NCBI GenBank assembly: GCA_016930515.1
Contig: JAFGGO010000154.1
Span: 1 to 14,403 of the forward strand
Length of the DNA: 14,403 nucleotides
Direction: 5' to 3'
DNA from: Promethearchaeota archaeon
GTDB taxonomy: Archaea > Asgardarchaeota > Lokiarchaeia > Sigyniarchaeales > SOKP01
Within the stretch, counting starts at the first letter, position 1. Each line of letters opens with the position of its first letter. The notes beneath the pieces were generated by a model. The model made no database searches. It had not been told where the DNA came from and saw only the letters and a list, made by a program, of their open reading frames with translations. Both the position numbers and the translations under genes were made by a program. Shown here piece after piece: positions 4,398 through 7,691 of this stretch.

Positions 4398-5762
4398 TTG
4401 GCAAAAAATAAAAAGATTTTAGGAATTTTAGCTATTGCACTCCTATTTATTACTGCTTTTTCAAGCTGTATTATTCTTGGACGCGCAATAGATTATTTTC
4501 CTATGGACGACGATTCTTGGACTGAACGAACGTTAGAAGAAGGAGATTTTAACGAAACTCTTATTGACGAAATGTATGAATATATTCTTGATGAAAGTCA
4601 TTATATTGAAAGTATTTTGATCTCCCGCGACGGTTATATAGTACACGATCAATATTTGGAATATTCTAAACCAAGAGATGAGAGATCGTATGGCTCCTTC
4701 TCTCCGACTGTCGATCTGGCCGGTATGGATTGGACACAGAAGATAGGAGGAATGCACGCCATGTGGAGCGTGACAAAATCGGTAACTTCCCTGCTCACGG
4801 GAATTGCTATCGCAAATGGAAGTTTAGATAATGTATCCGTAAAATTCTTTGATATATTCCCGGACAGGTGGGACGCTTCTTTCCAAAACGCAACAGAATT
4901 GCAAAACATAACCGTTGAACACTTATTAACGATGACTTCTGGTATTATGTGGGATGAGGCAACCGATGGATTCGTAGAATGGTCAAAAGAATATAACGGA
5001 TTTAACCATAGCATTAGTTATATTCTTAACAAATCTCTCGAATTCGATCCAGGTACAACATTTGAGTATTCGACAGGAAGTACGGAGCTTCTCGCATGTG
5101 TATTGCAAAATGTAACAAACATGTTGCTCTCCGATTTTGCGTGGGAATATCTTTTTGAACCAATCGGAATAGATCATGGCGATCTAATGTGGCTAGAAGA
5201 TCCATGGGAATGGGGTTCAGGATCTTTAACGAACATTTCTCACGGAGGATACGGTATCTATATGACTCCACGTGCGATGGCTCGAATTGGAGAATTAGTC
5301 TTAAATAACGGATCCTGGGATGGTGTTCAAGTTGTTCCTAAAGATTGGATTATTAATTCGTCCTTGGAGCATTCTACTCCAATAGGTATCGGAGAAAATG
5401 CAATGTATGGGTATCTATGGTGGATCCGCCCAAGTAGCTCATCCGATCACGGAGTTCGATATTTCTCGGCCGTAGGAGCATTTGGGCAAAAGATTACCAT
5501 CGTCCCTGATTACGATATGGTAATTGCGATTACATCAGACACGATTTTAGAACCGGGAACAGAAGCCGCAAGCCCGACCTGCATTGATTACATGATAGAC
5601 AATTTTATCATTCCCGCAGTTATTACGGGATGGACACCACCACCAGAAACACCAACAACTCCACCAGCAGGAATACCCGGTTTCGATTTGTATATTTCCA
5701 TTGCAGTAATAGGTTTAATTTCAATCGTATTAATCGTAAGAATTAAATCTAAATCTAATTAA
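4398..5762 (+). CDS. Secreted, C-terminally anchored serine hydrolase of the beta-lactamase/AmpC-like family
   Basis: Signal peptide (MAKNKK + hydrophobic stretch), SxxK = WSVTKS, ITVEHLLTMTSG, PGTTFEYST (Y-x-N/T), MTPRAMARIGELVLNNGSWDG, YGYLWW, AVGAFGQ. C-terminus is a P/T linker, IPGF, a TM helix and a basic tail. TTG start. Confidence 0.95.
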   Translation: MAKNKKILGILAIALLFITAFSSCIILGRAIDYFPMDDDSWTERTLEEGDFNETLIDEMYEYILDESHYIESILISRDGYIVHDQYLEYSKPRDERSYGSFSPTVDLAGMDWTQKIGGMHAMWSVTKSVTSLLTGIAIANGSLDNVSVKFFDIFPDRWDASFQNATELQNITVEHLLTMTSGIMWDEATDGFVEWSKEYNGFNHSISYILNKSLEFDPGTTFEYSTGSTELLACVLQNVTNMLLSDFAWEYLFEPIGIDHGDLMWLEDPWEWGSGSLTNISHGGYGIYMTPRAMARIGELVLNNGSWDGVQVVPKDWIINSSLEHSTPIGIGENAMYGYLWWIRPSSSSDHGVRYFSAVGAFGQKITIVPDYDMVIAITSDTILEPGTEAASPTCIDYMIDNFIIPAVITGWTPPPETPTTPPAGIPGFDLYISIAVIGLISIVLIVRIKSKSN

Positions 5763-5771
5763 TATTTAAAA

Positions 5772-5787
5772 TTTTTTTTATTTTTTT
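5772..5787 (+). terminator. Oligo-T tract, probable archaeal terminator
   Basis: TTTTTTTTATTTTTTT beginning 10 nt after the hydrolase stop codon. Confidence 0.55.
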
Positions 5788-5820: not shown

Positions 5821-5825
5821 GAGGT
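5821..5825 (+). promoter_or_regulatory. Shine-Dalgarno-like site
   Basis: GAGGT 7 nt upstream of ATG 5833. Confidence 0.55.
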
Positions 5826-5832
5826 TGGAATT

Positions 5833-6291
5833 ATGTTAATTGGAGCAGCATTACAGGAATTAAAAACATTGAAGAGTAAATTAGCAAGATTATATATTCT
5901 GCGACGAGACACTTTCAATGTGCTTGAAAACAAGATAATTGAAGTCGAGTTTGAGAAGGTTACTGAAGATATTAGAAATTTACTAGAGGAAATAAAAAAA
6001 CTGAAAGGAAATATCGCAAAAACTAACGCAAAAACCATCATAGAGCTTGATGGAATACAAATCACTATGCAAGAGTTAATCATAACCATTGGTGATTTGA
6101 AATCCGAATTGTATCAGCTTGAATATTTAAAGCCAAGAGGCGCGGTATATCTAGGTGGTCAAGCCGTGGAATATATTCCTCAAAAGCGACAAGACGAAAT
6201 GGCAACTATTATTGCAAATCTAGAGGAAAAAAAGGCTGAATTGGACAAGATATTACAATCAAAAAACTGGCAAATTGAACTCGTCGATTAA
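5833..6291 (+). CDS. DIP1984-family / DUF6847-like all-helical coiled-coil protein
   Basis: 152 aa. Pattern MLIGAAL...L...IAKTNAKT.....ITMQELI...L...ELDKILQSKNWQIEL matches my recollection of the DIP1984 consensus (MKLAEAL...INRTN..T...TL.EAL...ELD..IQ..NW..EL). SD-like site present. Family recognised by eye. Confidence 0.8.
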   Translation: MLIGAALQELKTLKSKLARLYILRRDTFNVLENKIIEVEFEKVTEDIRNLLEEIKKLKGNIAKTNAKTIIELDGIQITMQELIITIGDLKSELYQLEYLKPRGAVYLGGQAVEYIPQKRQDEMATIIANLEEKKAELDKILQSKNWQIELVD

Positions 6292-6539
6292 AAATTACTT
6301 TTAAAGAAAAACAATCTGGAAATCTCGAGATGACGAGAAAAATCCTTCCGGATAAATCGATTTTCAATCGATCTCGGTTCGAATCCGAATTTGTAATGTG
6401 ATGTCTTAACGATCAAGACTTATTGATTAAAGATTACAGATTAATGTTTACAGCTTATCAATTATCTCGAACATTTCGAGATTAAAGACAGGATCTTTGG
6501 AGAATTACTCCGCAGGTTTAGATTCTTGAAAGTAATTTT
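6291..6539 (+). ncRNA. Candidate structured ncRNA / 3'-UTR element (~250 nt) downstream of the DIP1984-like gene
   Basis: Nested stems: 6291-6304/6526-6539, 6313-6320/6517-6524, 6321-6332/6472-6483, 6334-6338/6465-6469. Local hairpins: 6342-6353, 6356-6372, 6374-6388 (T-loop), 6484-6498, 6499-6511. Several G-U pairs work only on the + strand. Confidence 0.7.
6397..6466 (+). repeat. Degenerate 7-nt tandem array, ten units, consensus (G)(A/C)TTAxx
   Basis: TGTGATG TCTTAAC GATCAAG ACTTATT GATTAAA GATTACA GATTAAT GTTTACA GCTTATC AATTATC. T at position 3 and A at position 5 in 10/10 units; TTA in 8/10. Confidence 0.8.
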
Positions 6540-6600
6540 ATATAATTTAACAATTAAATTTTTGTTATGAAAAGAAGTTAGACTAAAAATTATTAATTCT

Positions 6601-7161
6601 TTAAGCTGCGATCCAACATTGTGCTCTTCCTTTCTTTCCCTTGCGCAAAACTTTTTTAGCACTTTCCAAGTCAGACATGATTTTCCATATTTGTGCGTTC
6701 GAAACCTTGAAGTATCTTCGAAGTTCGGGAGTGGACATTTCTATTTCGCTTAACACATTAACGATTAACCTTTCGATTTCGTCAAGCTCGTTTGTGTTAA
6801 TGTTTTCTCCATCTTTACTCTCCTCGTCGTCATTAGGAGTCTCCATTTCGTTCATGTATCTATTAGCGATCTTGTTTAATTGTTGAATGTTATTTTCGAT
6901 CCCTTGTGGTTTCATAAAAAGGCAACACAATTCTAAATCTCTAGGAAAAGCAACGATATAGAAATTATCGTAAAGAATAGCTCTTGGTTTTTTACCAGCG
7001 TTTCCTCCCCTAAACGCCAAATAAAAACTCATTGCAAATTCGTCCAAGTTCACTATATTCGTTCCTTGTCCGTTTTCTTTCTTCCACTTCAAAAAAGGAC
7101 CATCAATCATGTCAAAACCAATCAAAGCAGCGCCAAATAATTCGTTTTCGTTAAAATTCAA
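6601..7161 (-). CDS. Longin/uDENN-like N-terminal domain fused to a C-terminal winged HTH
   Basis: N-terminal ALIGFDMIDGPFLKW resembles the uDENN/longin FDxxxGP strand-turn. Acidic linker, then IVNVLSEIEMSTPELRRYFKVSNAQIWKIMSDLESAKKVLRKGKKGRAQCW (wHTH-like). TTG start overlaps the GTPase TGA stop (TTGA); GAGGT lies upstream. Confidence 0.75.
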   Translation of the reverse strand: MNFNENELFGAALIGFDMIDGPFLKWKKENGQGTNIVNLDEFAMSFYLAFRGGNAGKKPRAILYDNFYIVAFPRDLELCCLFMKPQGIENNIQQLNKIANRYMNEMETPNDDEESKDGENINTNELDEIERLIVNVLSEIEMSTPELRRYFKVSNAQIWKIMSDLESAKKVLRKGKKGRAQCWIAA

Positions 7162-7691
7162 TTTATTACTACCTCTTTTCTGGAAAGTACTTTATTTAAC
7201 TCGTTCTTAATGATCTTAATTAATCTTAACTTATGAGAAGGATCAATAGCAATCATTCCATAGGTTTGCACTTCGAGAATTTCTTCGATTTTATTCACTT
7301 CTAAGCGATCCTTTCTTTGTTCGTATAGATCTTGCTTGTTTGCAATTGCAATGATTGGGCATTCATCGTCTAATATTTTATCTGCCACATCGATTAATAC
7401 TCGCGACGACATAACATTTCTCAATGTCGAATCGGTGACTACCAAGACGATATCCGAACCTAATAAATAACTACTAAGAAAGGAGTTCATGTATATATTT
7501 TGCCCACCAAAATCCCAAATCTTAATCCGATAGTTTTCAAACTCCACTGTTTTCAAGTCAAAACCCTGGGTTGGCAAGTAAATTCGATCAATTAATTTTT
7601 GCGAGAGCAATTTTAACAAGCTCGTTTTTCCAACAGCTGGGTATCCTATGATCGATATTTTAGCAAGGTTATTTATTCTCGAGCCAATCAT
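7158..7691 (-). CDS. Ras-superfamily small GTPase (Arf/Rab-like, Asgard type)
   Basis: G1 GYPAVGKT, G2 PTQG, G3 WDFGGQ, G4 NKQD, degenerate G5 (MIAI); 177 aa. Confidence 0.96.
   Translation of the reverse strand: MIGSRINNLAKISIIGYPAVGKTSLLKLLSQKLIDRIYLPTQGFDLKTVEFENYRIKIWDFGGQNIYMNSFLSSYLLGSDIVLVVTDSTLRNVMSSRVLIDVADKILDDECPIIAIANKQDLYEQRKDRLEVNKIEEILEVQTYGMIAIDPSHKLRLIKIIKNELNKVLSRKEVVIN

Follow-up and report, generated by a model that had tools for sequence, protein, structure and literature searches.

In Bacillus subtilis, TRAP reads the trp leader through 11 G/UAG triplets and HutP reads the hut leader through spaced NAG triplets; in both cases, evenly spaced motifs consist of invariant bases separated by variable spacers, and the subunits of a homo-oligomer read one motif each. 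We describe an evenly spaced array in a 14.4-kb stretch of archaeal DNA (contig C23 of a 4.0-Mb Promethearchaeota genome in 190 contigs; the whole stretch is referred to as the window), where it forms part of a folded RNA element (6291-6539 on the + strand, from the last base of a stop codon to the end of the closing helix, P1) at the 3' end of a gene encoding a DIP1984/DUF6847-like protein of 152 amino acids (5833-6291, +). As in TRAP and HutP targets, short phased motifs with invariant bases were found, here as eight units in 20 sequences. Whereas the TRAP and HutP arrays lie in the 5' leaders of other operons, serve attenuation control, and have a period of ~5 nucleotides (nt) or an otherwise different one, the array described here has eight units at a 7-nt period and sits within a closed scaffold at the 3' end of the gene for the protein itself. 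TRAP and HutP are, moreover, ring-shaped oligomers of other folds, while the protein considered here has the helical fold of Protein Data Bank (PDB) entry 3kdq, and its binding to the array is proposed only.

Other described systems share different features with this locus. Ro60 (Rsr) and its Y RNAs (Yrn1, YrlA) likewise combine a partner gene with an adjacent structured RNA of ~100-250 nt that carries a stem closing its 5' and 3' ends and a module of the tRNA T-arm type; however, the window protein is not a TROVE/vWA protein, its RNA is co-oriented with the gene and starts from the stop codon, and Y RNAs are without a heptamer array. The Y RNA models of Rfam yielded no match in the window. 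The type III toxin-antitoxin systems ToxIN, CptIN, and TenpIN are also sporadically distributed two-gene cassettes, in which a protein is paired with a repeat RNA that takes up several copies of it, but there the RNA precedes the gene, the repeats of ~34-45 nt are processed by the toxin, and the toxin is an endoribonuclease of another fold. Membership in this type was considered and rejected: the RNA lies downstream, its 7-nt units are set within a scaffold, and no PADLOC model matches. OLE RNA (OapA/OapB/OapC), ROOL, GOLLD, and raiA are, like the present element, elaborate conserved non-coding RNAs that emerged from comparative genomics and whose biochemical function is unknown, and the gene for a dedicated protein partner adjoins that of OLE. 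They differ from the element in the window in sequence, fold, size, and host range, and the latter has no Rfam match; in addition, the partner gene here precedes the RNA, probably on a single transcript. On the protein side, 3kdq from Corynebacterium diphtheriae (function unknown) resembles the window protein in whole-length fold, length, and single-domain build, but is only 17-20% identical to it, and the entry, by its title, contains no RNA. No described system known to us places a phased 7-nt array inside a closed and covarying scaffold at the 3' end of the gene for its partner. No match was found in Rfam, in the literature searched, among defense and phage models, or among structures beyond the uncharacterized 3kdq.

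Results

A conserved structured RNA follows the gene

The gene-RNA cassette is real and uncatalogued. We gathered 21 metagenome and 6 genome loci, and in all 20 distinct close homologs (59-68% identity) whose contigs extend 250 nt or more past the gene, the element lies directly behind the stop codon; in two further close homologs, it is cut within by the end of the contig. The homologous elements are 210-250 nt long and start 0-30 nt after the stop. A first-pass annotation of the window had proposed a structured RNA on the gene strand as part of a candidate new system. Its conservation and its absence from Rfam were both confirmed: the downstream sequences carry the element in 20/20 loci with helices that covary, and with E-values up to 1 admitted, the Rfam 15 covariance models matched neither the window nor any of nine homologous or related loci.

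When folded as RNA, the + strand of 6285-6545 reaches -67.2 kcal/mol, relative to -49.1 +/- 4.4 kcal/mol in 200 dinucleotide shuffles (z = -4.13, none as good), while the - strand yields z = -2.89. Consensus structure and pair counts were taken from a trimmed alignment of 20 sequences (A4), in which the window copy is the most divergent member and nevertheless fits the consensus. This consensus includes P1; a junction with P2a (GAAY/GUUC), a 3-nt 5' bulge (AMA), P2b (CCGU/ACGG), and a 3-nt 3' bulge between P2a and P1; and P3, a helix of 17-20 base pairs (bp). Over the pairs counted, 85.7% of cells form a standard pair, compared with 73.2% after shuffling (reached in 0/500 trials) and 30-52% when the partner is slid by 1-3 columns. 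Similarly, 33 pairs are changed on both sides (23.1 shuffled, 16-21 slid), and the covariation score is 0.434 (0.230 shuffled, 0.09-0.18 slid). Among the non-Watson-Crick cells of the 20 homologous RNAs, 144 are G-U and 33 are A-C, indicating that the RNA is read from the gene strand, as the first-pass annotation had argued from wobble pairs in the window.

In the window, the 5' strand of P1 (6291-6308, +) contains 14 paired positions, a bulged A (A6305), and then GAA; in its 3' strand (6523-6539, +), TTC pairs with this GAA and 6526-6539 pairs with 6291-6304 (14 nt, 93% complementary). The sequence of P1 is wholly different between lineages, while pairing is kept in every homolog, and 11 of the 11 pairs counted are changed on both sides. 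The 5' side of the junction (6309-6319, +) comprises AAAC as P2a (consensus GAAY), the bulge AAU (consensus AMA), and CUG as P2b (consensus CCG), and the 3' side (6512-6522, +) comprises CAG (consensus CGG), GUUU (consensus GUUC), and a 3-nt bulge, AGA. Relative to the consensus, P2a and P2b of the window carry double compensatory changes, from G-C to A-U and from C-G to U-A. The junction nucleotides AGAAY and CGGGUUC are conserved. P3 (5' strand 6321-6338, 3' strand 6465-6483, both +) is built of 12 bp (6321-6332/6472-6483), a 1-nt interruption, and 5 bp (6334-6338/6465-6469); across the alignment, 86.2% of its cells are paired over 17 aligned pairs, 12 of which are changed on both sides.

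The first-pass annotation had listed helices of this element, all of which are present as complementary sequence; one of them, however, was placed in the wrong register. The helix between AATCTGGA (6313-6320) and TTTAGATT (6517-6524) is complementary, yet neither the minimum free energy (MFE) fold nor the comparison of homologs supports it. The MFE fold instead pairs 6313-6318 with 6513-6518, and the comparative alignment favors CTG (6316-6318) with CAG (6513-6515), together with AAAC (6309-6312) with GTTT (6516-6519).

Smaller hairpins complete the fold. Three consecutive hairpins are predicted at 6342-6388 (+), the last of which (6374-6388, TCGG-TTCGAAT-CCGA) is T-loop-like; a hairpin of this type, with a YUCRA loop and a covarying stem, occurs in 17/20 homologs, and the one before it varies in loop size and sequence. 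P6 (6484-6498, +; AAAGA-CAGGA-TCTTT) is present in part of the family only, whereas a hairpin at the position of P7 (6499-6511, +; GGAG-AATTA-CTCC, just before the 3' strand of P2b) is found in 20/20 homologs with differing sequences, including GGGG/CCCC, GGGC/GCCC, GGA-UUCG-UCC, and GGGAU/AUCCC.

Several catalogued identities were tried and rejected. ARAGORN finds no tRNA or tRNA-like gene: the T-arm-like hairpin alone is conserved, with no acceptor stem. A kink-turn or L7Ae motif at the P1-P2 junction was rejected by eye in A4, in which CCG or a variable UGA, UAA, AAA, or AAU follows the bulges and G-A is not conserved. The element is single-copy in its genome, ruling out a repeat family or miniature inverted-repeat transposable element; only low-complexity chance matches were found in 40 related genomes.

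A phased heptamer array within the scaffold

Between the T-loop-like hairpin and the 3' strand of P3 lies the heptamer array (6402-6464, +). In the window, it consists of eight units at 6402-6457 (TGTCTTA, ACGATCA, AGACTTA, TTGATTA, AAGATTA, CAGATTA, ATGTTTA, and CAGCTTA) and a weaker ninth, TCAATTA. The consensus over eight units is N-R-G-M-U-Y-A, spanning the conserved UGAGGCUUUA to AAGCUCA, and in the alignment of 20 sequences, the G, U, and A recur at the 7-nt period with little or no variation. Identity at lag 7 in window positions 6397-6466 is 0.556, compared with 0.294 in shuffles (z = 4.8, 0/2000 as high), and the mean over the 20 homologous arrays is 0.54, compared with 0.20-0.28 at lags 5, 6, 8, 9, and 13. 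A 14-nt super-period was considered, as lag 14 reaches 0.61-0.69 in the window, but was rejected because the mean of the homologs is 0.49 at this lag versus 0.54 at lag 7. With a period of 7, a coding function of the array is ruled out.

The array is also less paired than its surroundings: the predicted unpaired fraction is 0.52, versus 0.32 for the rest of the RNA, and the array is the less paired part in 20/20 sequences. The alignment contains no conserved pairing partner for it. The 7-nt recurrence of invariant G, U, and A, the absence of such a partner, and the lower pairing probability together suggest that the array serves recognition rather than pairing.

The RNA and the gene are linked

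We built a covariance model, R1, from 210 positions of the alignment without P1. It scores the window copy, which is among its source sequences, at 128.4 bits over 6307-6521. In 135 genomes of the family, matches at E-values below 1e-28 were confined to G000, G020, and G235, the three that encode the close protein; a single R1 match is present in each, directly behind the gene. Genomes G164, G165, and G168 display the same pattern, with the R1 match linked to the gene. In G031, the contig ends 10 nt past the stop, and no RNA copy is found elsewhere in that genome. The distribution of the protein is patchy: among 400 genomes of the phylum, 7 (counting G000) encode the close subfamily and 15 encode any of the subfamilies. 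Flanking genes are common to near-identical loci only. The suggestion that gene and RNA constitute a self-contained two-part cassette is borne out by these data, R1 matches being located beside the gene only and flanking genes not being conserved. What these observations establish extends to the RNA family and its association with the gene, and no further.

Locus L047 carries tandem RNA copies (2141-2330 and 2442-2631) behind one gene, scoring 126.0 and 118.7 bits with R1. The copies have diverged, with P1 and P3 kept through compensatory changes. A 150-amino-acid open reading frame (ORF) of the same locus (604-1056, -) was tried as a second paralog and proved to be unrelated. Elsewhere, locus L052 (2501-2659) contains a 52-codon gene fragment, 65% identical over residues 1-51, followed by unrelated sequence without the RNA element; it looks like a decayed cassette. 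Public records assign the cassette contigs L056 and L058 to Bathyarchaeota and Candidatus Deferrimicrobium bins; these contigs also occur in genomes classified in the order (G031) and the class (G164) of the window, and the public labels may reflect mis-binning.

The partner is a divergent DIP1984/DUF6847 protein

The protein encoded at 5833-6291 belongs to a divergent archaeal branch of the DIP1984/DUF6847 superfamily, the family's name-giver being DIP1984 of C. diphtheriae. Full-length alignments were obtained with both Pfam DUF6847 (PF20935; E = 6.9e-5, 23.3 bits, cut-off 27) and NCBIfam DIP1984_fam (NF038048; E = 6.3e-8, 32.9 bits, cut-off 70), neither of which reached its curated cut-off. 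Ten of 13 relatives match the family models below or near cut-off, and a precomputed PF20935 match is present in many close homologs. A profile of 13 homologs found PDB 3kdq (E = 1.3e-6, residues 1-150). As modeled with AlphaFold2 from 95 relatives (pLDDT 96.3), the protein consists of four helices plus two small beta-hairpins; the model matches 3kdq in Foldseek (E = 2e-5, TM 0.77-0.81) and in VIA-align (Z = 14.4, rmsd 3.1, 148 residues aligned), while the fold search beyond 3kdq returned generic helical hairpins only (Z at most 7.6). The assignment rests on these full-length, sub-cut-off family matches together with the profile and fold matches to 3kdq, so that the kinship claimed in the first-pass annotation holds as a distant one.

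A profile search of 1.84 billion representatives identified 519 clusters of this family, mostly stand-alone proteins of 145-185 amino acids matched over their full length; with 152 amino acids, the window protein has the single-domain, ~150-amino-acid build of the DIP1984 family. Among 95 diverse relatives, N65 and N145 are near-invariant, and K11, K58, K/R90, and K134 are basic in >80%. The protein is predicted to dimerize with itself; of the oligomerization on the RNA proposed in the first-pass annotation, a homodimer is the part that a model supports. The homodimer model scored 0.61 (best control, 0.01), a mark reached by 20 of 30 proteins solved as one-chain pairs and by 1 of 23 solved as single chains, with the caveat that the relative 3kdq was solved with four chains and the pass may reflect likeness to 3kdq. 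The runs agreed in at least 98% of contacts, with a partner pLDDT of at least 90.

Several searches with the protein were negative. A tblastn search with the protein found no match in phage and plasmid records, nor did a back-translated scan of genome contigs with the single window protein, and no PADLOC or PHROGs model matches the window protein, which lends no backing to the defense, toxin-antitoxin, or stress roles floated in the first-pass annotation. The literature searched mentions the protein family under none of its identifiers, with 'Septicolysin' appearing as an annotation label only. Of 14 named control genomes, Deinococcus radiodurans alone has a DUF6847 gene above cut-off; this is a cultured, tractable organism.

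Heptamer arrays accompany distant homologs

Asgard homologs of ~30% identity (L023, L025-L029) are followed by other scaffolds, in each of which inner hairpins and a long outer stem again accompany 4-8 phased heptamers, for example GAUUAAG AAUAAAG ACUUAUG GAUAAAG. R1 matches these loci weakly and at array positions only. In the sources that name them, relatives of the window protein are labeled Promethearchaeota, Lokiarchaeota, or Helarchaeota, which makes the host an Asgard-type archaeon.

We also inspected a small sample of bona fide DIP1984 loci, i.e., contigs fetched for proteins scoring above the DIP1984 cut-off. In L064, an outer stem is accompanied by the units GAUUAUC AAUUAUC GAUUAAC, L065 has GGUUACA GAUUAAA GGUCAAU within a GC-rich closing stem, and L068 has a structured gap of 176 nt with GUAU-type units at a 7-nt period. 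In L063 (477-614), the region behind a DIP1984 gene (172.6 bits, NF038048) contains a GGGG-UUCGAAU-CCCC hairpin whose T-loop sequence is identical to that of the archaeal RNA; this contig ends after 138 nt. The contigs of L069 and L070 end too soon past the stop to judge. The suggestion, in the first-pass annotation, that bacterial-type homologs also have structured 3' regions therefore stands for L064, L065, and L068, and for L063 as far as the T-loop-like hairpin within its 138 nt.

In L068 (1-2465), the DIP1984 gene has an SLT lysozyme-like gene and a dCMP deaminase gene as neighbors, a context that could be that of a phage or mobile element. Separately, locus L062 (G280:C8, 1480-1590, -), from a genome of the same family, contains a stand-alone array of ~16 heptamers (GCTTAAG GTTCAAA GTTTAAG GCTCAGA) with a 28-nt super-repeat. 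It sits between two tandem GNAT-like genes, has a weak R1 match at array positions only (E = 0.003), and has no DUF6847-like gene among the nearby ORFs.

Organization of the locus

The gene and its RNA occupy a distinct interval of the window. The gap between the stop of the DIP1984-like gene and the convergent ORF at 6601-7161 (-) measures 309 nt (6292-6600), compared with 35 nt for the second convergent gap of the window (10376/10412), and the ORF coordinates thus uphold the contrast that had first drawn attention to the interval. The T-tract and Shine-Dalgarno (SD) sequence that had been ascribed to the gene are both present as well. A T8 and a T7 run (5772-5787, +), read directly from the sequence, lie behind the stop of the upstream gene (5760-5762) and are likely an archaeal oligo-T terminator that would insulate the cassette. 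The SD-like GAGGT (5821-5825, +) lies 7 nt before the ATG, and upstream of the ATG in homologous loci, there is either an SD-like site or, at a distance of ~25-30 nt, a TTTATAAA-type box.

Downstream, a T5 run (6559-6563, +), 20 nt behind P1, is a possible oligo-T terminator of a gene-plus-RNA transcript; several homologous loci have longer T runs at this place. No conserved promoter-like box was seen between the stop codon and P1 in the homologous loci. Given this, the promoter-like TTTATAAA or SD site before the gene, and the oligo-T after P1, the simplest reading is that gene and RNA are co-transcribed. No RNA data set is listed as containing the stretch, and contigs of two metatranscriptomes from the same study did not map to it, in contrast to those of the DNA run that may be its source; this has no bearing on expression.

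Other genes of the window include those for a thiolase, a beta-lactamase-fold protein, an Arf/Ras-type small GTPase, an alpha/beta hydrolase, and an ICMT/PEMT-type methyltransferase. The small GTPase gene (7158-7691, -) overlaps by 4 nt the start of the 186-amino-acid ORF at 6601-7161 (-), which has no Pfam match; the two look like a coupled pair, convergent with the cassette.

Discussion

The fold of the RNA, its strand, its phased array, and its linkage to the gene are observed. What they are for is a matter of interpretation, and we give an even chance to the following proposal: that the cassette is a self-contained transcription unit whose scaffolded heptamer rail binds several copies of the protein made from its own transcript, yielding a ribonucleoprotein (RNP) or an autoregulatory complex. 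One unit would run from its own promoter or SD site through the gene and the ~250-nt RNA domain to an oligo-T stop. The RNA would fold into a rigid scaffold, with P1 closing it, the two-bulge junction, the long P3, the side hairpin P7, and the T-loop-like hairpin, and this scaffold would present a stretch of ~60 nt containing eight phased heptamers. The rail could then act as a platform for several copies of the protein encoded by the same transcript, probably dimers, and what results might be a defined RNP or, on the mRNA of the protein itself, an autoregulatory complex. Within this proposal, we infer co-transcription, protein-RNA binding, its stoichiometry, and the cellular role.

That the array is bound by a protein is suggested by its invariant bases at a fixed period, its free spacers, its lack of a pairing partner, and its persistence as the scaffold changes with the protein subfamily, features comparable to those of the TRAP and HutP targets. 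We favor the DIP1984-like protein as the binder because it is the sole factor that always accompanies the array.

Several observations weigh against this proposal. The protein is not basic (pI 5.45, net charge -2; the family median pI is 6.5), and many of its most conserved residues (24-33, 63-67, and 112-118) sit in the predicted dimer interface and so need not contact RNA. Some homologs shift the phase of the array by 1-2 nt. The helix drawn as closing the array, UGAG.GCU/AGCUCA, is nearly invariant and shows almost no covariation, making the mode in which the array is presented uncertain. Finally, the adjacency of gene and RNA is also expected from a purely cis-acting element of the 3' untranslated region (UTR).

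This last point leads to an explanation that we consider unlikely, namely that the element is a 3' UTR module for the stability, termination, or localization of the mRNA; its readers would be general host factors, if any, and the protein would not bind it. The acidic to neutral character of the protein would fit such a module, as would the start of the element at or within ~30 nt of the stop, the lack of a conserved promoter-like box seen before the RNA, and the oligo-T runs behind P1. Yet a covarying, multi-helix fold of ~250 nt with invariant unpaired nucleotides far exceeds what a terminator or stabilizer needs, and the element is found on no other gene of these genomes. It is also difficult to reconcile this explanation with a class of RNA that switches with the protein subfamily while the array persists, or with the structural constraint on the second tandem copy in L047.

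Alternatively, the RNA might be the active part, as a ligand-binding or catalytic RNA or a sponge for some other factor or a nucleic acid with a 7-nt period, and the protein its chaperone, cofactor, or co-regulated product. Features such as its conserved junction nucleotides and T-loop-type hairpin are characteristic of RNAs that have tertiary structure, and the stand-alone array of ~16 heptamers in L062 has no such gene among the nearby ORFs. No Rfam ribozyme or riboswitch model was matched, however, and the linkage to one protein family across very distant subfamilies argues for joint action; we hold this explanation to be distinctly unlikely.

A pair resembling type III toxin-antitoxin systems, in which a toxic protein is neutralized by a repeat RNA that binds several copies, appears improbable to us. 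The two-part composition of protein and repeat RNA, the patchy distribution with changing neighbors, and an array that could titrate several protein copies are all in its favor, but the RNA lies downstream of the gene instead of upstream, its 7-nt units are embedded in a scaffold as opposed to the ~36-nt tandem units of ToxIN, and the protein's fold matches 3kdq only, with no PADLOC or PHROGs match. Lastly, iterons and partition sites typically consist of short repeats in phase, but the notion that the heptamers act as DNA, as iterons or centromere-like sites of a DNA-binding protein with incidental stems, can be nearly dismissed, as the long-range helices covary, the wobble pairs are valid on one strand only (the G-U excess over A-C given above), and the element is chromosomal, single-copy, and located among ordinary cellular genes.

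Returning to the binding of the rail by its own protein, we advance a broader form of it more tentatively, at somewhat less than an even chance: that DIP1984/DUF6847 proteins and 3' heptad-array RNAs are an unrecognized class of RNPs in archaea (Asgard), bacteria, and possibly phages, with dimers of a fold found nowhere else arranged along a phased 7-nt rail, a lineage-specific scaffold, and a function of its own (defense, stress response, or RNA storage) beyond autoregulation.

With this work, a protein family with a solved structure and no known function gains a dedicated folded RNA at the 3' end of its gene, in Asgard archaea and at a few bona fide DIP1984 loci. The family thereby acquires a first functional handle, a candidate RNA ligand with a simple recognition code of G-U-A at a 7-nt period, and a class is added to the structured RNAs that was missing from Rfam and from the literature searched. 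The RNA biology of Asgard archaea has hardly been explored, and few of their conserved, non-ribosomal structured RNAs are backed by covariation; the element is one of these. If the RNP reading is true, the stoichiometry, structure, and phenotype of the complex would be approachable by expression in laboratory hosts.

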